Assembly: GCF_001465295.1 (NCBI RefSeq)
Contig: NZ_CP011034.1
Location: 1,710,001-1,742,000, forward strand
Direction: 5' to 3'
Length of the DNA stretch: 32,000 bases
Origin: Pseudoalteromonas translucida KMM 520
Lineage (GTDB): Bacteria > Pseudomonadota > Gammaproteobacteria > Enterobacterales > Alteromonadaceae
In this document: in pieces, positions 22,235 to 32,000 of the stretch
Position numbering within the stretch: the first letter of the stretch is position 1
Layout: each line of letters opens with the position of its first letter
Position numbers and translations under genes: made by a program
The notes under the pieces: generated by a model
Told to the model about the DNA's origin: nothing
The model's database searches: none
Seen by the model: the letters and a program-made list of their open reading frames with translations, nothing else

Positions 22235-23194
22235 GTGGCCAAGCTATCTAATACAGAAATTAGAAAACTCGATGATGCAGCAAGAGCAGGGTGGTTGTAT
22301 TATGTTGCAGGTAAAACTCAAGAAGAAATAGCTAAAAAACTTAATACCTCACGCCAGTCGGCACAAAGAATGGTAGCGCTATCTGTTAGCCAAGGATTAA
22401 TAAAAGTAAGGCTCGATCATCCTATTGCTAAATGTATGGATTTGGCTGAACAAATTAAAACGCGTTTTGGTTTGATCTCTTGTGATGTAGTGCCTAGTGA
22501 TCCATCAGAGCCTTCATCTACATTGGGTTTGGCACAAGCTGGTGCGGCTGAAATAGAACGCCATTTAAAATCACCACAACCAAAAGTAATTGCAATGGGA
22601 ACCGGGCGAGTTTTACGTGCGTGCGTAGATGAACTGCGAACACAAGATTGCCAACAACATAAAATAGTAGCCATGTTAGGCAATATGGCATTAGACGGAT
22701 CGGCATCGCCATACGATGTAGTAGTTAGAATGGCCGAGCATATAAATGCCAAACATTACCCAATGCCATTACCAGTTTTGCCACGCACCATTGAGGAAAA
22801 GCAGCTACTGCATTCACAGCAAAACGTTGCTAGCAATTTAAAGTTGGCCACTAATGCAGATGTTACATTTGTAGGCGTAGGTAATTTAGGATTAAATTCG
22901 CCACTTCATAAAGACGGTTTTGTTAGCCTTGACGAACTCCAAGAGTTACAACAACAAGGTGCTGTTGGGGAAATGATAAGTTGGGTGTTTGATAAAAACG
23001 GTAAGTTATTAGATTGTAATGTTAATCAACGAGTAGCAAGTACGCCATTAAAAATTAATTCTGGAAAACAAATTTTTGCTATAGCTGCCGGAGAAGAAAA
23101 AGTGTTAGCCATTTTAGGTGCGCTAAGATCTAAAATGATTAGTGGGCTTATTACTAACGAATGCACGGCCGAGCGCTTACTCAGTATTGAGTAA
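22235..23194 (+). CDS. SorC/DeoR-type sugar-binding transcriptional regulator
   Basis: GTG start with AAGAGG 5 nt upstream. N-terminal HTH (AARAGWLYYVAGKTQEEIAKKLNTSRQSAQRMV), then a SorC-like sugar-binding domain (IAMGTGRVL, VAMLGNM, FVGVGN, IFAIAAGEEK). Confidence 0.8.
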   Translation: MAKLSNTEIRKLDDAARAGWLYYVAGKTQEEIAKKLNTSRQSAQRMVALSVSQGLIKVRLDHPIAKCMDLAEQIKTRFGLISCDVVPSDPSEPSSTLGLAQAGAAEIERHLKSPQPKVIAMGTGRVLRACVDELRTQDCQQHKIVAMLGNMALDGSASPYDVVVRMAEHINAKHYPMPLPVLPRTIEEKQLLHSQQNVASNLKLATNADVTFVGVGNLGLNSPLHKDGFVSLDELQELQQQGAVGEMISWVFDKNGKLLDCNVNQRVASTPLKINSGKQIFAIAAGEEKVLAILGALRSKMISGLITNECTAERLLSIE

Positions 23195-23383: not shown

Positions 23384-23398
23384 CACATGACTACCTAT
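23384..23398 (+). repeat. Direct repeat copy 1 (CA[C/T]ATGACTAC[C/T]TAT)
   Basis: CACATGACTACCTAT. It matches 23478-23492 at 13 of 15 positions, 94 bp apart, upstream of the first recombinase gene. Confidence 0.35.
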
Positions 23399-23477
23399 AA
23401 TTTATATTATGTTAAAAACAATATGATTCCTATTTAATACATATAGCTTAGTTCAATATAAACAATTCCCACAAAAT

Positions 23478-23492
23478 CATATGACTACTTAT
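23478..23492 (+). repeat. Direct repeat copy 2 (CA[C/T]ATGACTAC[C/T]TAT)
   Basis: CATATGACTACTTAT. See copy 1. Confidence 0.35.
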
Positions 23493-23572
23493 TTCCTCTA
23501 TTTTCTTGTGCTTCATAATCTTTGAGTCTAAGTTTATACACATATGTATGATTCTTCTAAGCCGCTGGTAAC

Positions 23573-24952
23573 ATGTACAAAGTAATTAACTGTAGCAATA
23601 GGTATTATTGTTTGCTGGATCGTCTAACAACATTGCCTGTGCTTTTAGCGTTAAGATATACAGAATCACAACTAATTATAAAATCACTAAACTATCAGAA
23701 GTACGAACTTGAATCTGTGAAAGCTTTTTATGAGTTTTGGTACGCAAAGCATAGAGTGACTCTCGACTATTCTTTTTACATTAGTGAGTATCAAGATATT
23801 TTGATGTTAGTTCAGGAAATTGAACCCTTCTTGGAGTGGCTATTAAGTGGTCGTGAATTCAATAACATAGTACAGCTAACTGAGAATAATTCTGTAAATA
23901 TGAGAACAGCCTCAGGCCGAGTAGCTTCAATTTGTCGATTCATTAATTTTTTGAACAAAACCTACATAACTACTTACTACAGTAATTTGCCTTTGCCTGA
24001 TATTTCAAATATTCAACAGTTGGTTTTAATACAACTCGATGGAATAAAGAAAAAATGCAATATATTTACAAAAAGCAGCTGCAAGCAACAACAAATTCGT
24101 AGTTTGACTAAAGAACAATTTAATGACTATACGGCTATTTTTGTTCCAGATAAAATTTCACTAAGAAACAACCAAATTAACCACTACGAAGTTATAACCC
24201 CCAACCCGCTTAATCCTATGACCTCATATGATATTCAACTTCGAAACTATCTAATAATGGTGTTAATGAGTGTATACGGCTTACGAGTAGGAGAAGTTTT
24301 GCTACTTCATAGGCTTTCATTTAAACATTATCGCAGTGATGAAACTAAAGTGTTAATGCTCGTTCGTAACATAGAAGATGAAGTTGATGAAGTAGAAGAT
24401 GTCCGTTTATACAAACCAGGTTTAAAAAGCGAATCATCGATCAGAATGCTCGATATCAGTAGCAAGCACTTCCGTTACATCAAAACATACATTGATATAT
24501 TTAGGCCATTGAAATGTGAGCATGATTACATATTCGTTTCACACAAAACACCATATCAGCCACTTTCATATAGCACTGTGGCAACTGAATTTGCAAGATA
24601 CTCTGAGTCATTTAAGAAGAATTTTAAACATCATTTTGATCCGCAATACAGTGAATCAATTCATGGTAACGTGAGCCCGCATTGGCTCAGGCATACTTGG
24701 GCTTATAATCAGTTAAGAGTGCAATTTTCAATGAATGAGTCACGATTTACTCATGATGGTATCGTTAGCATAAAAGGCATTATGGAAGACGCGATAGATT
24801 CTCTTCGAGTATTAGGTGGATGGGCACCTAATTCATGTATGCCTCATCGATATGCAAAACGATTTATTCATGAGCAGGCAAATAAAACATTATTGTCGGT
24901 ATTAACCTATGATACTAATTCACAGAAAATAGAGGTTGATGAAAATGACTAA
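23573..24952 (+). CDS. Tyrosine recombinase 1 of 3 (ginA-like position)
   Basis: 459 aa. It has the box I Arg in YGLRVGEV (R238, 24284-24286), HWLRH (24680-24694; H370/R373), LGGW, and a candidate nucleophile Tyr in PHRYAKRF (Y427, 24851-24853). Confidence 0.85.
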   Translation: MYKVINCSNRYYCLLDRLTTLPVLLALRYTESQLIIKSLNYQKYELESVKAFYEFWYAKHRVTLDYSFYISEYQDILMLVQEIEPFLEWLLSGREFNNIVQLTENNSVNMRTASGRVASICRFINFLNKTYITTYYSNLPLPDISNIQQLVLIQLDGIKKKCNIFTKSSCKQQQIRSLTKEQFNDYTAIFVPDKISLRNNQINHYEVITPNPLNPMTSYDIQLRNYLIMVLMSVYGLRVGEVLLLHRLSFKHYRSDETKVLMLVRNIEDEVDEVEDVRLYKPGLKSESSIRMLDISSKHFRYIKTYIDIFRPLKCEHDYIFVSHKTPYQPLSYSTVATEFARYSESFKKNFKHHFDPQYSESIHGNVSPHWLRHTWAYNQLRVQFSMNESRFTHDGIVSIKGIMEDAIDSLRVLGGWAPNSCMPHRYAKRFIHEQANKTLLSVLTYDTNSQKIEVDEND

Positions 24953-26492
24953 TGTATCTCATAGAATGTCTGTGGGCCCTCTGCCCCCCCTACTCCATGA
25001 TGAGCAAAAAGCATTTATTAAACTGCTTAATATCCCCTTAATAATGAAGATACCCTCCAATTCAAAATTTGACCAAAAATTTGTTCATACCACAGGTGAA
25101 CGTTGGGAGTTTAAACGTTTGGGTGTAAAGCACGTTTATATATTCAACATTGGATGTATATACCTTAATAAATTGCTTAAGTACGTGACAATCAAATATG
25201 CCTATGAGCATTCGGCACCTTTGACAGATACATTGTTTCATTGTGTCAGAAGGTTTTTAAGTTCAAGTGAGCTAAATGACAATGCTAGTTTAAATAATTT
25301 AGAAAAAGAGGCTATGTGTAATAATGCAGATGTACAGGCGCACTACGTAGTAAAATCGGTCATTAGGTCACTTTTTCGTATCGGATTTCCAGGGTTTGAA
25401 ATCAATCATTATCAAAAATTGAACTTTTTAAAAACGCCCGCGCAAGTCAATAATTTTTTGAAATATGAAGATATTGAGAATATCATGCCGTCTCATTTAA
25501 AATACCTCATAGTCAGAAGATTAGCGGAGTTTAGTACCAAAGAGGGGCTTGTATCATTATCCAATAACGAATTGAAATGCTTAGTAATTTTAGGGTTATG
25601 TTATTCCACAGGGATGCGTTCATCACAGTTTTCTATGTTGCATGGATCTTCGGTGTTAATGGTTTCACATAATAAATCATCTGGTCTTGCTAGGTATGAA
25701 ATTTTAATGCCGATAGCTAAGCAGCAAAAAATAACAGGCGACTTATCCCGTGTAGCAATTCCATATGAGGTAGGTCGGTTAGTAGATGAATATAAAACGA
25801 GAAATGCTATCGGTGAAGGTGACCAACTTTTTGTCTCCGTAACTAGCGACTTATCGCCTGAATTACATAGATTATTAAACGAAGCATTAAAGTTTATTCA
25901 ATCTGACGAGTTTAAGGCCGATTTAGCAAAAAATAAAGTGTTTCCTCCTCGTATAACTATATACGATTTTCGCCATAATATCGGACATTCAATGGCAATG
26001 CGAGGCGCTAGTGCTGAGGAAATTGCCCATATCCTTGGGCATACTAGCATAGTCGCTGCGAAGCACTATATTTCGGCGACACCTGAATTAGCGCTATTAA
26101 AACATAAAGCGCTTGGCAGTAACCCTATTTGGCTGAAAATGATTGGCTTGATGATGTCAGGCTATTCTGTTGAAGAGAATGACTGGTCTGGCAAAGTAGT
26201 TAATGGAGTCTTAGGCAGTAAACTCGTACTAAAAGTAGGAGGTTGTGAACGTAAGCAGGAGCAATGTCACTTATCCAAAGTGCGTTCCTGTTACGGTTGT
26301 TTTTACTTTCGTCCATTTACTGATTTGGAAAAACACAAGGAAGTTTTAAATATCATTACTAACGAACTTATTAATCAGATTGAAGTCTCCCAAATATCAG
26401 GGAATCATGTAAATCCATTGATCGATACAGTGACCTGCACCAAACACGAAGTTCAAATGGTTATTAATAGAATTTCTGGTGGACTCTTATGA
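24945..26492 (+). CDS. Tyrosine recombinase 2 of 3 (ginB-like position)
   Basis: The track ORF starts at TTG 24936. AGAGG (24931-24935) sits 9 nt before ATG 24945, which is preferred and overlaps the upstream stop as ATGACTAA. In track numbering: STGMRSSQ (R228, 25617-25619), YDFRHNIGH (R346, 25971-25973), ILGHTSIVAAKHY (Y378, 26067-26069). There is a C-terminal 4-Cys cluster at 26244-26300. Confidence 0.85.
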   Translation: MTNVSHRMSVGPLPPLLHDEQKAFIKLLNIPLIMKIPSNSKFDQKFVHTTGERWEFKRLGVKHVYIFNIGCIYLNKLLKYVTIKYAYEHSAPLTDTLFHCVRRFLSSSELNDNASLNNLEKEAMCNNADVQAHYVVKSVIRSLFRIGFPGFEINHYQKLNFLKTPAQVNNFLKYEDIENIMPSHLKYLIVRRLAEFSTKEGLVSLSNNELKCLVILGLCYSTGMRSSQFSMLHGSSVLMVSHNKSSGLARYEILMPIAKQQKITGDLSRVAIPYEVGRLVDEYKTRNAIGEGDQLFVSVTSDLSPELHRLLNEALKFIQSDEFKADLAKNKVFPPRITIYDFRHNIGHSMAMRGASAEEIAHILGHTSIVAAKHYISATPELALLKHKALGSNPIWLKMIGLMMSGYSVEENDWSGKVVNGVLGSKLVLKVGGCERKQEQCHLSKVRSCYGCFYFRPFTDLEKHKEVLNIITNELINQIEVSQISGNHVNPLIDTVTCTKHEVQMVINRISGGLL

Positions 26493-28909
26493 CTTTACAA
26501 CAAGAAAACCTTCAACTGTTAATAAGTCAGAGCAAAGCTTATTTCGAATCAGTCCTTGCTAAAGAGGCAAAATTAAAGTGGGAGGACAATAGATGGTTAT
26601 TTAATGCGTCACAAACAGGTTTCCTTATTAACCGCAAAAGGGAGAATATCGCATATGATTGCATAAACCTAGCCTATTTCAAAGGCATCCTGAAACAGGG
26701 AGAGTATTTTTCTTCACCCACAATCTTGGTTGAAAATGAATACATTGTATTTATGAAAGCTTATATTGTGAATCTGATGTCAAAGTCTTCTAACAAGCTA
26801 TCTTGTTCCACTTTAAAGACAAGACAATTGTTGCTCAAGCGTATTTATATTCGAATGCTACAAAATAATATCCCACCGTTTGCGACCAACATTACCAGTG
26901 AAGTGATTCAGGAAACGGTTGATATTTTAGTACGGATACGAAAAAATCAATCTAATGCCGCAGATGACTATACTCAAATGAACACAGTGGTTCAATGGTT
27001 AAATCATTTCCAGATAACGAGTGCTCCATTAGAGCTCAAAATAAATGTTACTGCCCCACCGCGAAATACCACTGAACGTGTGAGAAAAGATAAAGCTAAA
27101 TCTGGAGTATTAGCAGAATTTGCAGAGTGCTTCGGCGATCAAGATGACAAGCGAAACCTATCGATTCATACATTCTTAAATATTATTGCGCTACGAATTC
27201 TCGTTCGTTCAGACAGTGAAAAAATCATGTTAAATATGGTACTTCTTCTCATTGTCACGGGTATGCGTTTTGGTGAAGTTTATTCGTTGAGGCGTGATGC
27301 ATTGAAGAAACTGAAGGTTGAGGATCCAGATATCATAAAGTTACTCAGGGACCGTAAGCTACCAACATACTATATTGGTATTCAGTATTACGGAGAAAAA
27401 GGAGCTGGTGAGAGAACCCATTGGGTTGAACCTTTGGCCATAGGTATCGTAGAGAGTATATTCCACGACACCTTGGCTATGAGCTGTAGTCTCAGAGAGC
27501 AAGTTATATATGTACGTGAAAATAATTTCAAAACACTCCTTCCAAAGAAATATGATTTTAAATGTACAACATCATCTAAATTAAGTTTAATTAATTTAGA
27601 TGATGTTGTACGAGACATTTACGAGAGCACATCGAAGACAGCTTTAGCAAAAGGATGGTCGTCTATGAGGGAATACGCTAAAGCAAAATTAAAGAAGTTT
27701 GATATCAACCCGATTCGGGTAGAAATTAAAGGAAAAAATAAAACTATACATTATACTTTAGAGGATATAGATAAATATTTGAATTTGTCCCTTCAAGCTG
27801 ACTCGACTATATCTTCAGATTTTATCTTTAGAATGATCGATCATAGAAACAATATAAATTATGAAGTTAAGTATGAAGATATGTTATTTATCGTTCCACT
27901 AGGGAGTAATAAATTAAGTAAAACGGGGTATACAAAACCAATTCCACAGCTCGTTTCAATTAATAATATGATGTCCTTTTTAGGTAGTGGTAATACCAAT
28001 AGCAGTAATTCTATTTTTTCTAAGTACAAACTGATTGATGAATTGGGTCAAACAACATACCTAAATACTCATTTCCCAAGACACGCTATTAATACTTTCT
28101 TTGCTATTGCAGGCGTTGCTGATCATCTTCAGGCTATGTTTATGGGTCGAACCGATATACGTCAAAATGCTTACTATCAACATCTAGCTATACAAGAAAA
28201 AGCGCGTTCGAATCAGTTAATCACTCACAGTAAACCTAGTTCATGTTCACAAAATTCATCAGTTACCAAATCAAGTGGTAGCCTTAATAATGCTTTGCAA
28301 AAAGTTAAAGATACATCCCAAATATCTTTGACAACTAAGTTGCAACCTAACAATGCCTTTAACCAAACCTTGCATACATATACAACTAAACAAGATAGAA
28401 CAGACTTTATAGAGGATATTATTGATAAAACGTCATCTGATATCTTTTCTGAATTTGAAGATATGGACGTTACTGATGTGGTTAAAAAAGACATTATTTC
28501 GACTCACTCAGATCTATATCCACTGTATATTGGGAGTTGTATGAGAAAGTTAACAACGTTTGAATGCCCTTATAACACAAAGTGCCAAGATGGCAGCTAT
28601 TGCCCTTACTTTATTATTACTGGAAGAGAGGATGAGTTTGATAAAATGACAGCGCTAATAAGTGAAATTCACGAGCAAATAACTGTTTTAAATCAATTAA
28701 TTATTTCAAAATATATAGAAGAAAATACCGCAATTGAGCTTATAGAAGAACTTAAAGGTCGACTAAGTAATTTAGACTATCAACTCAGTCAGTCATCAAT
28801 CTTAGAATCTGAGAAATCAAAGGTGAATCTAGCTTCATTTGACGTCTTTAAAAAACCAAAGATGCTATCGGAATTATTCGCGGTTGAGCAAAGAAAGCTT
28901 AAGACTTAA
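26489..28909 (+). CDS. Tyrosine recombinase 3 of 3, large form with a long C-terminal extension (ginC-like position)
   Basis: 806 aa. ATGA start/stop overlap with the upstream gene (26489-26492). VTGMRFGEV (R260, 27266-27268), THFPRHAINT (R531, 28079-28081), MGRTDIRQNAYYQH (Y562/Y563, 28172-28177). A 4-Cys cluster lies at 28538-28603, followed by a coiled-coil-like tail. Confidence 0.85.
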   Translation: MTLQQENLQLLISQSKAYFESVLAKEAKLKWEDNRWLFNASQTGFLINRKRENIAYDCINLAYFKGILKQGEYFSSPTILVENEYIVFMKAYIVNLMSKSSNKLSCSTLKTRQLLLKRIYIRMLQNNIPPFATNITSEVIQETVDILVRIRKNQSNAADDYTQMNTVVQWLNHFQITSAPLELKINVTAPPRNTTERVRKDKAKSGVLAEFAECFGDQDDKRNLSIHTFLNIIALRILVRSDSEKIMLNMVLLLIVTGMRFGEVYSLRRDALKKLKVEDPDIIKLLRDRKLPTYYIGIQYYGEKGAGERTHWVEPLAIGIVESIFHDTLAMSCSLREQVIYVRENNFKTLLPKKYDFKCTTSSKLSLINLDDVVRDIYESTSKTALAKGWSSMREYAKAKLKKFDINPIRVEIKGKNKTIHYTLEDIDKYLNLSLQADSTISSDFIFRMIDHRNNINYEVKYEDMLFIVPLGSNKLSKTGYTKPIPQLVSINNMMSFLGSGNTNSSNSIFSKYKLIDELGQTTYLNTHFPRHAINTFFAIAGVADHLQAMFMGRTDIRQNAYYQHLAIQEKARSNQLITHSKPSSCSQNSSVTKSSGSLNNALQKVKDTSQISLTTKLQPNNAFNQTLHTYTTKQDRTDFIEDIIDKTSSDIFSEFEDMDVTDVVKKDIISTHSDLYPLYIGSCMRKLTTFECPYNTKCQDGSYCPYFIITGREDEFDKMTALISEIHEQITVLNQLIISKYIEENTAIELIEELKGRLSNLDYQLSQSSILESEKSKVNLASFDVFKKPKMLSELFAVEQRKLKT

Positions 28910-29017
28910 ATCTTATTGCGTAGATCCCCTGCTCCACATGAGTTTGTTTTTTGTGATTTAATGACATTAATTTAAACGTCGTAATCGTTAACTAAGTAAC
29001 TATCTGTGAGATTATAT

Positions 29018-29446
29018 ATGAAAGGTAAAGAATTAGATCGAGAAGTTGAGAAAATACTTATGGACATGCTTGTTGATGGGTATCATGTATCCCCTATTTC
29101 ACAAAAATCAGTATTTGAAAGATTACGTAGTAGAGGCATCATTAAATCTAAAGCTACGCTAACAAAAAGAATGCCTTTAATAAAAGAATATCTTGTTAAA
29201 CAGCAGGCAGAGGTTAAAGGGGTTTTGGGAGAATCATTAGTTGGTAGTAATAGCCAAACTAGAGCTAATTTAATTGCAAGTAATGCACGTCTAAAAGATG
29301 AACTAAGGGAGTCGAAGCAGCAACTTATAGTCAATACCAACGTGATTTTGGATATTGTAAAAACTATTAAAACACAAACGAACATTTTAAATATTGAACG
29401 TATTCTATCACCTAAGCTAATCAGAGAATTAAGAGAGAATGATTAA
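29018..29446 (+). CDS. Small HTH-like / coiled-coil protein following the recombinase trio (ginD-like position)
   Basis: The track start is GTG 29006; ATG 29018 gives MKGKELD.... The N-terminal segment (SPISQKSVFERLRSRGIIKSKATL) is HTH-like. The C-terminal part (ARLKDELRESKQQLIVNTNVILDIVKTIKTQ) has heptad character. It starts 108 nt downstream of recombinase 3 on the same strand. Confidence 0.65.
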   Translation: MKGKELDREVEKILMDMLVDGYHVSPISQKSVFERLRSRGIIKSKATLTKRMPLIKEYLVKQQAEVKGVLGESLVGSNSQTRANLIASNARLKDELRESKQQLIVNTNVILDIVKTIKTQTNILNIERILSPKLIRELREND

Positions 29447-29638: not shown

Positions 29639-31018
29639 TTATAAAAATGCTTCAACAACTCTAGCTCTGAGTGACTTAATGTGTAAACTATCCATAGAGC
29701 AATAAGGCAACTCTCCAGTGCTAACCAGATAGTTACCTGAAGATAAACAATCTTCACTAAGTACATCAAAGTTCACTTTTAAGCTGCTATTTTTTCCTTT
29801 CTTATATGGTTTTAAATGTTTCAATGATTTATCTGACAATGAAAGAGTATTACATTCCATATCAACATAAGAGCAACAATCTGGTATATCAATATTAATG
29901 CGCTCAGCAAACTCAACTAAGCTTGTTTCTGCAAATGTGAATAACCAGGCGAGTTCAATTTTATTTTTGCCAGATCTAACAATACGCCCTAAAACTTGCC
30001 TAAAGTACAACTCTGTTTTTATAGAGCTTAGATGACAACATACTTGTAGTCTAGGTATGTCGGTACCTTCACTGATCATGCCTACACTAACAATCCACTG
30101 TTCAAAAGATGACTTAAATGAGTTGATCTTTTTTATTGAATTATCGTGTAAGTATGTGACTATCGTTGACGTTTGATTGAATTCTTCAATCAATATTTTG
30201 TTAATCATTTCTGCGTGTGCTACTGAAGACGCAACAACTAGACCTCCGGCAGTCGATTTTGAAGTTCTTATCTCCGACAATTTTAATACTGCTAATTTCA
30301 ATAGATATTTAAGTGCAGAGTGGTTATTAAGAACTTCTTGGTGCGTTGAGTGAGTTTGTTTAAGAAATTCAGCAATCGATCCGTAGGTTTCGTGACCATT
30401 CGAAATACTTTTGCTGTCAACTAAAACTATTTTTGGTTCTCTACACACATTATCCCCAATGGCCTGACTAAAGCTGTATTTATAATCGCAGATTAATTTA
30501 CCTTCGGGGTCTGAATAGTTTAGCAAAGCGATAGGAAGAGCATCTGATCGCCAAGGGGTGCCCGATAGCGCAAGCGTGTAGGTTGCAATATCCTGCAAGT
30601 TGAAAACCACTCTCTCACCCCACGTATTGATTTTAGATTTATCTTGCGAGAATGAGCAGTGATGTATTTCATCAAAAATAAAAAATGTACGATATTTACT
30701 AAGCCCAAACCAAGCACTCTGTGGAATTGAACATAAACTTTGATAAGTCATAGAGACACCTATAGACGTAAATGAGCCATCAAACGAACAGCCAATTATT
30801 TTTCCAAATGTTCTTCTAATATTATTAGCCACCTCAACCGATGGTGAAAAACAGACAACCCTATCTATCATTTTTTTATCAAATAACGTTTTTGCCAGTG
30901 ATGCTGCCATTATTGTTTTACCACTGCCAGGAGTAGCCTGACATAGAAAGTGCTTATCAGTAGCCGTGTATTTCTTTACTGCTAACTCCAGACATTCTTT
31001 TTGCCAACTTCTCAGCAT
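29639..31018 (-). CDS. Superfamily-2 helicase (ResIII/DEAD-like core plus Helicase_C-like domain) with an unrecognised ~90-aa C-terminal tail
   Basis: Ordered SF2 motifs:
- Q-like: LRSWQKEC
- I: ATPGSGKT (G31-T35 = 30914-30928)
- Ia: VCFSPSVEV
- Ic: TYQS
- II: FDEIHH (DEIHH = 30659-30673)
- III: LSGTPWRSD
- V: MISEGTDIP
- VI: QVLGRIVRSG
No nuclease or other effector domain recognised. Confidence 0.85.
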   Translation of the reverse strand: MLRSWQKECLELAVKKYTATDKHFLCQATPGSGKTIMAASLAKTLFDKKMIDRVVCFSPSVEVANNIRRTFGKIIGCSFDGSFTSIGVSMTYQSLCSIPQSAWFGLSKYRTFFIFDEIHHCSFSQDKSKINTWGERVVFNLQDIATYTLALSGTPWRSDALPIALLNYSDPEGKLICDYKYSFSQAIGDNVCREPKIVLVDSKSISNGHETYGSIAEFLKQTHSTHQEVLNNHSALKYLLKLAVLKLSEIRTSKSTAGGLVVASSVAHAEMINKILIEEFNQTSTIVTYLHDNSIKKINSFKSSFEQWIVSVGMISEGTDIPRLQVCCHLSSIKTELYFRQVLGRIVRSGKNKIELAWLFTFAETSLVEFAERINIDIPDCCSYVDMECNTLSLSDKSLKHLKPYKKGKNSSLKVNFDVLSEDCLSSGNYLVSTGELPYCSMDSLHIKSLRARVVEAFL

Positions 31019-31560
31019 TGCTGGGCACCATTGTTCAAAGAAGACAATACAGTAGTTAAAGCGTTAACTTTTCCTAATAACTTAGCTGAATTATTTTTAG
31101 CATCATCTAATGCAGAATAGAACAAGTTAAGGTGGTCAGGGAATCGCTTTTGTAGAGCCTTATATTCATCAACTTCCCCCAGTAAAATTGCAAGTTCAGC
31201 CTCAAACTGATTCTTTTCATTTAATAAAGTTTCTACAAGCGGTGATGCTTGATTATCAGTATTACAGCTAATAGATATTTCTTGTTCAATTGCAACCTGT
31301 TTAGGCTCAAAGGTAACTTTATTAAACAGCTCAGATTTAAAATACTTTTTATTGCGGCCACTTCCTTTTGAAATTAAGATCTCCTTCCGCTCAAGAGCTG
31401 TCGTTTGTCTATAAATAAATTTACGTGCCTCATCTATATCTTGATATGTATCAGTTACGGTTAGTAATTCATCCCTTAGCTCGACAATTGTGAAACCATT
31501 GCACTCTTTTTCGAGCAAAAGGGAATAAATGTGTTGGTTTAATTTGATAACTTGGGGCAT
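31012..31560 (-). CDS. Hypothetical protein: winged-helix-like N-terminus plus coiled-coil C-terminus, translationally coupled to the helicase
   Basis: 182 aa. The N-terminal ~85 aa (IYSLLLEKECNGFTIVELRDELL...ARKFIYRQTTALERKEILISKGSGRNKKYF) looks like a wHTH. The C-terminus has a heptad-like stretch (LLNEKNQFEAELAILLGEVDEYKALQKRF). Its stop (31012-31014) overlaps the helicase ATG (31016-31018) as ATGCTGA. Confidence 0.7.
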   Translation of the reverse strand: MPQVIKLNQHIYSLLLEKECNGFTIVELRDELLTVTDTYQDIDEARKFIYRQTTALERKEILISKGSGRNKKYFKSELFNKVTFEPKQVAIEQEISISCNTDNQASPLVETLLNEKNQFEAELAILLGEVDEYKALQKRFPDHLNLFYSALDDAKNNSAKLLGKVNALTTVLSSLNNGAQQC

Positions 31561-31585
31561 TTCTTATACTACAATATTTACGAAA

Positions 31586-31602
31586 ACTTAGGGTTGCTAA
31601 GT
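31586..31602. promoter_or_regulatory. Operator-like palindrome O1 (ACTTAG-N5-CTAAGT)
   Basis: ACTTAGGGTTGCTAAGT, 25 nt from the start codon of the 182-aa gene. It overlaps a possible leftward -10 (TATACT, complement of 31600-31605). Confidence 0.7.
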
Positions 31603-31619
31603 ATATAGAACAATGCAAA

Positions 31620-31636
31620 ACTTAGGAATACTAAGT
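31620..31636. promoter_or_regulatory. Operator-like palindrome O2 (ACTTAG-N5-CTAAGT)
   Basis: ACTTAGGAATACTAAGT. Its centre is 34 bp from the O1 centre. Confidence 0.7.
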
Positions 31637-31678
31637 TATGAATTTAAGAGTGATATTAAGAGCATACACACAAGCATA

Positions 31679-31695
31679 ACTTAGGATTCCTAAGT
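31679..31695. promoter_or_regulatory. Operator-like palindrome O3 (ACTTAG-N5-CTAAGT)
   Basis: ACTTAGGATTCCTAAGT. Its centre is 59 bp from O2 and 34 bp from O4. Confidence 0.7.
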
Positions 31696-31712
31696 GTACA
31701 AATCGTTGTAAA

Positions 31713-31729
31713 ACTTAGACAATCTAAGC
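31713..31729. promoter_or_regulatory. Operator-like palindrome O4 (ACTTAG-N5-CTAAGc)
   Basis: ACTTAGACAATCTAAGC, 27 nt upstream of the GTG start of the XRE gene. Confidence 0.65.
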
Positions 31730-31756
31730 TACTAGAGACTGAAAAATGATACTTTT

Positions 31757-32000
31757 GTGTTCCAAAATCCAATTCCAATTAAACTCAAACAAGCCCGCAC
31801 TAAATCAGGTATTACTCAAAAACAGCTGGGGGTACTTATCGGCATGGATGAAAACTCTGCGAGTGGTCGGATGAATCACTATGAGAAAGGCCGTCATATT
31901 CCTGACTTAGCTACCCTAAAAAAGATCGCTGATGAACTAAATGTTCCATTGAATTATTTTTTCTGTGAAGATGAGGCAACAGCAGAGCTAGTAATTGAAA
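31757..32000 (+). CDS. XRE-family helix-turn-helix transcriptional regulator (3' end cut by the window)
   Basis: Not in the ORF track because there is no stop in the window. My translation from GTG 31757 gives (M)FQNPIPIKLKQARTKSGITQKQLGVLIGMDENSASGRMNHYEKGRHIPDLATLKKIADELNVPLNYFFCEDEATAELVIE, a classic HTH_3/Cro-cI type domain. An in-frame stop at 31733-31735 bounds the 5' end. The nearby ATG at 31746 is out of frame. Confidence 0.8.
   Translation, partial: MFQNPIPIKLKQARTKSGITQKQLGVLIGMDENSASGRMNHYEKGRHIPDLATLKKIADELNVPLNYFFCEDEATAELVIE

Follow-up and report, generated by a model that had tools for sequence, protein, structure and literature searches.

A tyrosine recombinase trio at the dif site of Pseudoalteromonas translucida KMM 520 and a putative dif-targeting branch of GInt-like islands

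The DNA examined here, referred to as the window, is a 32-kb stretch of chromosome I of Pseudoalteromonas translucida KMM 520. Beside the chromosomal dif site it carries a module of four genes, three of them for proteins with tyrosine recombinase features and the fourth for a small helical protein, at the left end of a genomic island. The original prediction, made from the sequence and its open reading frames, had taken the module for part of a GInt-type island in an Alteromonadales-like host. The host is indeed a member of the Alteromonadales, and with moderate confidence the island is assigned here to a dif-targeting branch of GInt-like islands, of which this segment would be the left, recombination-module end, inserted at the chromosome I dif of KMM 520.

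The four-gene module

23573..24952, + strand: gene 1, GinA-like tyrosine recombinase, 459 aa (Pfam PF00589, 1.3e-7)
24945..26492, + strand: gene 2, GinB-like tyrosine recombinase with a C-terminal four-Cys stretch (Pfam PF00589, 3.2e-9)
26489..28909, + strand: gene 3, GinC-like large protein of predicted tyrosine-recombinase fold, 806 aa, with a C-terminal Cys cluster and a coiled coil
29018..29446, + strand: gene 4, small helical accessory protein, 142 aa, the positional counterpart of GinD, Srap and TnpC

The three reading frames of rising size (459, 515 and 806 aa) and the 142-aa frame described in the original prediction were all found on the forward strand, and its account of their spacing is accurate as well. 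The stop codon of gene 1 (TAA, 24950-24952) lies inside the start of gene 2 in an 8-nt overlap, ATGACTAA at 24945-24952, genes 2 and 3 overlap as ATGA at 26489-26492, and 108 nt separate the stop of gene 3 from the ATG of gene 4 at 29018. Genes 1-3 are read as translationally coupled. Gene 2 could start at ATG 24945 (515 aa) or at TTG 24936 (518 aa), the ATG, with GAGG 9 nt upstream of it, being the likely start; for gene 4 the options are ATG 29018 (142 aa) and GTG 29006 (146 aa). The product of gene 3 corresponds to KMM 520 locus tag PTRA_a1905 (806 aa, 100% identical).

Conservation was judged for each gene on family alignments of 40-46 sequences, an earlier alignment of gene 3 having included 25 homologues with identity down to 28%. 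Each of the three large proteins had been credited with Arg, H-x-x-R and Tyr blocks. This is correct for gene 1, whose canonical set R238, H370-x-x-R373, W417 and Y427 is invariant or nearly so, and for gene 3, in which R260, K304, H528-x-x-R531, R554 and Y563 are invariant in 46 sequences, as is a C-terminal cluster formed by C684, C693, C699 and C705. It is nearly but not literally correct for gene 2, where R228, R346, H369 and Y378 are conserved and the position of the histidine in H-x-x-R is occupied by tyrosine in KMM 520 (Y343) and by serine or threonine in most relatives.

Genes 1 and 2 reach the Pfam Phage_integrase cut-off, and gene 3 stays below it (15.1 bits vs 27.1). The gene 3 profile gave no significant match to the sequences of solved structures, and it was the fold search alone that succeeded. 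Its AlphaFold model (pLDDT 79.9, pTM 0.64) returned only tyrosine recombinases as top structural matches in Foldseek, namely Cre, XerH, XerA, Flp, lambda Int and Tn1549 Int, with E-values from 2.5e-3 and a probability of about 1; judging from this model, gene 3 is predicted to have the recombinase fold. The C-terminal part of gene 2 matches the NCBIfam model NF041502 (2e-20), on which GinB of Escherichia coli Sakai scores 320.6 bits. For gene 4, described before as a helix-turn-helix or coiled-coil protein, a model with two short helices and one long helix (residues 8-19, 29-38 and 45-140) was obtained from a two-sequence alignment, and that description stays at the level of the plausible.

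Within the coding sequence of gene 3 (27564-27611) lies an inverted repeat whose 21-nt arms pair perfectly around a 6-nt loop (RNA fold of -28.8 kcal/mol, z = -10.9). Its left arm contains 11 clustered differences from the 89%-identical sequences of two related contigs, L005 and L007, in which the inner 8 nt alone pair. The hairpin resembles the outcome of a template switch specific to this strain, in which a quasi-palindrome became perfect and residues ~359-363 were altered.

The chromosomal dif site as insertion target

22235..23194, + strand: SorC/DeoR-family regulator gene, chromosomal flank outside the island (Pfam Sugar-bind, 1.7e-64)
23390..23417, + strand: chromosome I dif, forming the left attachment site (attL): ACTACCTATAA (XerC arm), TTTATA (centre), TTATGTTAAAA (XerD arm)
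23418..23572, + strand: non-coding left-end leader, ~155 nt, from dif to gene 1

The original prediction placed the insertion downstream of the SorC-regulator gene. The actual target is the chromosomal dif at 23390-23417, which is common to the clade; the regulator gene was seen in 80 metagenome loci, some with the island and others lacking it. This site, the only dif-like one in the window, is identical at 26 of 28 positions to ACAACCTATAATTTATATTATGTTAAAT, the dif that Kono and others predicted near mid-chromosome on chromosome I of P. haloplanktis TAC125 (Kono et al., 2011). The experimentally confirmed dif of E. coli, as quoted in the same work, is GGTGCGCATAATGTATATTATGTTAAAT (Kono et al., 2011), and the motif upstream of gene 1 in enterobacterial relatives is GGTGCGCATAATGTATATTATGTTAAAT too. 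Of the 18 Pseudoalteromonas contigs where the search hit the dif site, 17 share without change the 27 nt that lie left of the junction, ACTACCTATAATTTATATTATGTTAAA (23390-23416), within flanks that are 70-80% identical, and the 18th has 1-2 substitutions.

The same arrangement recurs far outside Pseudoalteromonas, with dif targeting spanning at least 10 genera of the clade. By aligning upstream regions from Acinetobacter, Psychrobacter and enterobacterial subgroups, it was found that similarity between otherwise unrelated flanks starts at ...ATAATGTATATTATGTTAAAT. A taxon-typical 28-bp dif on the same strand lies upstream of gene 1 in 37 of the 41 informative loci (those with gene 1 present and at least 250 nt of upstream sequence), and in 27 of these loci dif precedes gene 1 by 80-295 nt. 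In E. coli CFSAN061762 the locus runs lsrK ... hipB-hipA-dif-module-cargo, and homology with strain K-12 ends 2 nt past dif; in the E. coli loci examined, the module adjoins hipA-dif. The element always sits on the XerD-arm side, gene 1 reads away from dif, and the island of the window begins at or inside the XerD arm of an intact dif. The leader is common to the window and the island of contigs L005 and L077, its outer ~50 nt having diverged in L007.

Other signals around the junction were searched as well. The tRNA and Rfam searches gave no match there, the promoter and terminator scan returned sites no more numerous than in shuffled sequence, and FtsK-orienting polar sequence (KOPS) motifs and GC skew were uninformative over the 32 kb. 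A direct repeat (23384-23413 and 23478-23507) is not conserved in L005 or L007 and was set aside as chance. Within a few kb of dif, both the window (22235-23194) and the E. coli locus L152 (9787-10740) have a SorC/LsrR-family regulator beside an ABC transporter operon, which is probably a coincidence.

Empty sites and recent mobility

The original prediction had proposed that relatives lacking the insertion be compared. Metagenome contigs carrying the neighbouring SorC-family regulator gene served as comparators. The two closest of them, L064 and L065, in which the regulator is 97-98% identical, align to the window through 23416 and then continue into unrelated sequence, which in L065 reads TAGAGTTTGAAATAAGCTATTCAGTATAAC to the right of the empty dif; neither contig encodes any of the four module proteins. 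An empty dif is also present in at least 14 further, more distant Pseudoalteromonas contigs. These empty sites place the left end of the island at 23416/23417, replacing a boundary at ~23468 that had been drawn from the L007 comparison.

An island 93% identical to that of the window was seen at the dif of another Pseudoalteromonas species, whose regulator is 83% identical and whose flanks are ~76% identical. The empty dif in relatives of KMM 520 together with this island in another species demonstrates recent mobility of the island lineage. The second of the refuting conditions set in the original prediction, that every relative would have this segment here and no empty site would exist, is thereby disposed of. 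A third copy (L007, ~89-93% protein identity) stands beside a gene for a 2,324-aa phage-tail-like protein and not beside the regulator gene (L007 6900-7085). A stretch of about 1.4 kb on the right side of the empty dif in L065 (1100-2479) contains no reading frame of 60 aa or more, and the terminus-proximal flank of that lineage is non-coding or decayed.

Synteny and distribution of the module

The synteny scan, with one genome per species, found relatives of gene 3 at 56 loci. Of these, 32 have the complete set of four genes intact, in the order 1-2-3-4 and on one strand; in the remaining 24 the module is cut by contig ends, or genes are split, frameshifted or disrupted by insertion sequences (IS). 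A different gene order was not seen in any of the 56, and gene 4 follows gene 3 in all family loci where it was seen. The trio is therefore a conserved unit, kept in order and strand in other genera, which disposes of the first refuting condition set in the original prediction, a row of unrelated stand-alone phage integrases lacking conserved synteny. Besides Pseudoalteromonas, the module occurs in Shewanella, Aeromonas, Vibrio, Photobacterium, many Enterobacterales, Providencia, Acinetobacter, Psychrobacter and Moraxella, and the size of gene 3 across the family is ~780-860 aa.

Among 5,426 complete E. coli genomes, 224 carry the enterobacterial variant, at 240 positions on chromosomes and 7 on plasmids. 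The module was found on 118 plasmids, the majority of them large, conjugative and from Klebsiella, E. coli and Salmonella. A search of 2.9 million viral contigs yielded only 6 loci, so the family is not enriched in phages. A search of 1.84 billion cluster representatives recovered 30 clusters of gene 4.

Relation to GInts and other multi-recombinase systems

GInts are defined by the genes ginA-ginB-ginC-ginD, all four of which are needed for excision and integration, and excision is rare even in functional elements (PMC5385486). By definition they are flanked by imperfect direct repeats of 10-17 nt (attL/attR) and have an AT-rich 3' end; their families are very divergent (24-40% identity) and differ in target. 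Two references were used: the element of E. coli Sakai, whose ginC and ginD are listed in Additional file 10 of Idola and others, and a module of GInt layout on P. aeruginosa plasmid pCF39S. Strand-biased circularizing elements (SEs), which carry intA-tfp-intB-srap (Idola et al., 2023; PMC10214605), were represented by two SEs with defined ends, on pAQU1 and pBT2436. The fetched regions of these four references contain no dif-like site.

In BLASTP, gene 1 matched GinA (1e-11), gene 2 GinB (2e-5) and gene 3 GinC (5e-7). Family profiles were then compared by hhalign probability:

Window families vs Sakai GInt: A 99.6%, B 94.7%, C 97.9%, D/gene 4 0.5%
Window families vs pCF39S: A 99.0%, B 98.3%, C 99.1%, D/gene 4 0.2%
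Control, Sakai vs pCF39S: A 98.6%, B 93.5%, C 99.5%, D 97.4%

Genes 1-3 thus pair with GinA, GinB and GinC position for position (93-99.6%), in the profile and BLAST comparison that the original prediction had suggested, and for these three proteins the window is about as close to each GInt reference as the references are to each other. The match between the gene 1 family and GinA is nearly full length, and off-diagonal pairs and all SE pairs stay at or below 11.5%.

The fourth protein behaves differently. Its profile, built from 50-80 sequences, scored 0.5-0.6% against GinD of Sakai and 0.2-0.4% against that of pCF39S, in contrast with 97.4-98.5% for the GinD-GinD control, and below 1% against Srap; enlarging it with hits from the 1.84 billion representatives brought no similarity to GinD either. 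Gene 4 would accordingly fit the GinD/Srap/TnpC role by position and predicted shape only. The proposal of a GInt-type island therefore stands for genes 1-3 as homologues of GinA, GinB and GinC by position, for the island edge, the empty sites and the variable cargo, and fails for the identification of the fourth protein as GinD, to which it shows no detectable similarity (<1%) despite GinD being so readily recognised between the two references (97-98%).

GInts and the KMM 520 clade both have three genes of the tyrosine-recombinase fold and a small helical gene, arranged as an operon at the 5' end of a variable-cargo island, both have C-terminal Cys stretches in GinB and GinC, and the restriction or defence genes that GInts often carry are likewise cargo in the KMM 520 clade. 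Unlike GInts, which target ssb, an ABC-transporter gene or nrd, the clade targets dif or plasmid Xer-like sites, its gene 3 is larger (about 780-860 aa), and its fourth protein lacks the likeness to GinD. In GinC of both references (L002 4397-6028 and L145 4899-7016), R-x-x-E, H-x-x-R-H, G-R and Tyr are collinear with the invariants of gene 3, and GinC of pCF39S has a C-terminal Cys cluster too; this retention of motifs is at odds with the literature, in which GinC is stated to be without the catalytic motif or its first arginine.

The NCBIfam models of the gamma-mobile-trio (Gmt), in which GmtY and its partners form a curated trio of mobile-element recombination genes in Gammaproteobacteria, gave no match at E <= 0.1 for the four window proteins, and GinA and GinB of Sakai produced only weak matches to GmtY. 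Tn554 resembles the module in its adjacent, overlapping tyrosine recombinase genes that act together, as do RIT elements, and Tn554 adds the small TnpC; it differs in having two recombinases against three here, in a comparison made by architecture alone. RITs have three recombinases of ordinary size, no fourth gene and inverted-repeat ends, and are set apart here by description only.

The clade seems to have been missed by the published ginC-ginD PSI-BLAST survey. Shewanella halifaxensis HAW-EB4 (NC_010334.1), which carries a 43%-identical gene 3, is scored SE = 0 and GInt = 0 in Additional file 4 of Idola and others. Neither the complete SE list nor the compared portion of the survey's GInt list, ~85% of it, contains the common enterobacterial accessions.

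Crossover, right end and proposed mechanism

The position of the crossover can be approached from one enterobacterial element type, which is identical from the XerD arm inwards, TTATGTTAAAT-CACCTACTGTGG..., and adjoins three different combinations of XerC arm and centre: ...CATAA-TGTATA on the chromosome, and ...CACAA-TCTATC and ...TATAA-TCAGCA on plasmids. Since the XerD arm is identical next to three left combinations, the left part comes from the target replicon, with the XerD arm as the common core, which places the crossover in the XerD arm or at its edge. Xer strand exchange depends on matching central regions. As the central regions here vary, it is argued that the element's own recombinases are the presumed catalysts, and integration by these enzymes is, judging from the sites, the most likely course. 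The preferred reading has the island in a distinct clade of gammaproteobacterial relatives of GInts that take Xer sites as their target, both the chromosomal dif and plasmid dif-like sites with other centres.

Candidates for the right attachment site (attR) were recognised in two family loci. In L011, where the element measures 7.8 kb, the candidate is AACTGGCATAA-G-TTATGTTAAAT, with a 1-nt centre; in L048, with an element of 15 kb, it is GAAGTCGCATAA-CTTCATT-TTATGTTAAAT, with a 7-nt centre. Both combine a XerC-like arm and an aberrant centre with the perfect 11-nt XerD arm TTATGTTAAAT. The right-end segment of L011 is 99.7% identical in L054, which has more cargo. A second dif-like site was found neither within 26 kb in the E. 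coli locus L152 nor in the window.

According to the proposed mechanism, an excised circle would carry an attP site with a core resembling the XerD arm. The element's recombinases, together with the small protein, would exchange strands within the XerD arm or at its outer edge, leaving an intact dif at attL and a crippled dif-like attR with an aberrant centre, which the host XerCD-FtsK would be unable to use for deleting the island. A distal site that XerCD-FtsK cannot use would explain how the island survives at dif. For the KMM 520 copy we infer the catalyst, the exact cut positions and the structure of attP and attR. The related contigs end early, L005 and L006 at ~950 bp past the window and L007 inside the helicase gene; the tail of L005 gave no match to the flanks of the empty sites, and a look-alike of the left leader in that tail, tried as a right end, was dropped as chance.

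Weighing the interpretation

Several observations weigh against a dif-targeting branch of GInt-like islands. The dif is 2.5-3.2 kb away from gene 1, with extra DNA between them, in 10 loci of Psychrobacter and Photobacterium, and 4 of the 41 informative loci have no recognisable dif nearby. The L007 copy adjoins only a degenerate dif-like sequence, CATAA-TTAAAT-AATTCTAAAAA, and could represent insertion at a secondary site or in a second replicon, or else part of a stacked array. The attR candidates consist of short motifs, and the flanks of K-12 and L011 matched over 7-8 nt only; the right end of the KMM 520 copy lies beyond base 32000 and in no related contig. What the KMM 520 clade would do in excision and integration is read from genes and sites alone, the reaction could be catalysed or aided by the host's XerCD, as it is in every known element that exploits dif, and GInt genetics would extrapolate less well to a clade whose gene 4 is not detectably related to GinD. 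The KMM 520 copy itself could be inactive, given the strain-specific cluster of substitutions in gene 3.

Dif-distant loci are found in Psychrobacter (L020, L021, L024, L034, L042, L061) and in Photobacterium (L046, L051). The extra DNA in five of the Psychrobacter loci (L020, L021, L024, L042, L061) ends like the C-terminus of a further integrase (HGFRASAKT...LGH...GGAYNR), and it may represent another element that has stacked at dif, or else a fifth gene for a recombinase.

Among other explanations, the island could be one of the integrative mobile elements that exploit Xer (IMEXs), integrated by host XerC and XerD via a dif-like attP, with the trio serving for excision, for activating or blocking Xer, or for cargo capture. 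The location precisely at dif suits this reading, and so does the layout of the two attR candidates, which keep a half-site resembling the XerC arm and a perfect XerD arm, as IMEXs do (PMC5357621); moreover, Enterobacter elements at dif have been published as putatively Xer-dependent. Like CTX-phi, VGJ-phi, TLC-phi, the gonococcal genetic island and EludIMEX-1/EcloIMEX, the island lies at dif with a functional dif on one side, and in L011 and L048 a crippled dif-like site stands on the other. However, known IMEXs exploit the host Xer enzymes and normally encode no integrase, while here three recombinase genes with invariant catalytic residues are fixed at the dif-proximal end in every locus; element-encoded integrases are absent from the IMEX descriptions that were compared, the primary EcloIMEX papers lying outside these. 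The occurrence of the same element type at three different central regions is hard to square with Xer strand exchange, and homologous GinABCD modules integrate at sites other than dif (PMC5385486). Taken together, Xer-dependent integration is considered unlikely, yet it is a real alternative, as is a cooperation of Xer with the element's recombinases.

The island could also be an ordinary GInt in the sense of Bardaji and others, with dif as one more insertion specificity. Its four-gene layout at the 5' end of a variable-cargo island and the homology of A, B and C agree with this, as do the wide divergence and the varied targets of GInt families, and GinC of both references likewise has the R, H-x-x-R, Y and Cys-cluster features. 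Against it stand the fourth protein, not detectably GinD-like in spite of the ease with which GinD is recognised between the references; the negative score of a genome of the clade, that of Shewanella halifaxensis, in the published survey; and the targeting of dif in ten genera or more, which is absent from the two GInt reference loci. This makes a plain GInt a distinctly improbable description.

A further possibility is an immobile remnant, acquired at dif at an earlier time and now fixed or decaying in KMM 520. The rarity of GInt excision even in functional elements (PMC5385486), the substitutions in gene 3 that created the perfect 21-bp hairpin, and the frameshifted or IS-disrupted genes of many family loci point in this direction. 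The four reading frames are nevertheless intact with their catalytic residues kept, and the nearly identical island at the dif of another species, together with the empty sites in close relatives, speaks for recent mobility, so a remnant is very unlikely. Least credible of all is an SE moving in a copy-out-like manner: SEs occur in 17% of Alteromonadales replicons, several in Pseudoalteromonas (PMC10214605), they are the commoner trio type in Alteromonadales and Vibrionales, and they look similar, with three large genes and a small coiled-coil gene at the left end, gammaproteobacterial hosts and small variable cargo, but IntA, Tfp, IntB and Srap of the two SEs gave no significant BLASTP or profile match to any of the four proteins, the order of catalytic and non-catalytic proteins differs, the middle protein of SEs being without a catalytic motif where gene 2 keeps R228, R346, H369 and Y378, and the complete SE list contains none of the enterobacterial relatives' accessions.

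A dif-targeting branch of GInt-like islands is therefore retained as the preferred reading. A broader formulation, held tentatively and with somewhat less than even confidence, is that of an unrecognised class of elements: a GInt-related clade specialised on dif and plasmid Xer-like sites, with its own three-recombinase machine and a novel small partner, in contrast to every dif-exploiting element described, whose cut in or at the XerD arm would keep dif functional and disable the distal site, and which is carried by ~4% of complete E. coli genomes and more than 100 plasmids of clinical Enterobacterales with defence and other cargo.

Significance

The dif site, at which bacteria resolve chromosome dimers, is present in single copy, is nearly universal and is needed at cell division. 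These properties make dif an ideal landing pad, though a risky one. Two functional dif sites would lead XerCD-FtsK to delete the intervening DNA. The elements known to use dif are mostly filamentous phages and satellites that borrow the host XerCD. The literature search, with the primary EcloIMEX papers outside it, returned no paper tying GInts or recombinase trios to dif. An overlap with the EcloIMEX/EludIMEX family is possible, as the present family is set apart from those elements by secondary descriptions only.

The family offers a direct way to ask why trios need three enzymes and which enzyme recognises which half-site, and it allows the coexistence of an island with chromosome dimer resolution to be studied. 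For annotation it provides a rule for terminus islands, namely a four-gene module within ~200 nt of the XerD arm of dif. On large conjugative plasmids of Klebsiella, E. coli and Salmonella, relatives occupy Xer-like sites and bring with them restriction, NACHT-type and other cargo, and the family may be an unnoticed route for the movement of defence and resistance genes.

Cargo

29639..31018, - strand: superfamily-2 helicase (ResIII/DEAD + Helicase_C), 459 aa (Pfam ResIII, 1.6e-14)
31012..31560, - strand: VspR-like regulator, 182 aa, overlapping the helicase gene (VspR_N and VspR_C Pfam hits on the 182-aa L005 counterpart)
31585..31731, no strand assigned: four copies of the palindromic box ACTTAG-N5-CTAAGT, lying within a divergent promoter region (repeat families D1/D2, inverted repeat I4)
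31757..32000, + strand: start of a gene for an Xre-type, C-protein-like controller, running off the window (102-aa homologue in L005, PADLOC Control_protein, 7.1e-33)

The VspR-like protein of the window itself gave no match in the local Pfam scan, and the helicase has a partial match to PADLOC PbeA (1.2e-13) that is confined to the helicase core. PADLOC did not assign the helicase and VspR-like pair to a known defence system. The pair is kept in the related island of another species (L005), and it may be an uncharacterised defence or regulatory pair. The palindromic boxes resemble the C-box operators of controller-regulated restriction-modification systems, in which case the regulated genes would lie past base 32000; the helicase, the VspR-like regulator, the boxes and the controller together suggest that the cargo there is a restriction or defence unit under regulation. 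Cargo differs between the window and the loci L011, L054, L144 and L152, and among relatives it includes a type I restriction system, AlbA with NACHT proteins, and a lipid A acyltransferase.

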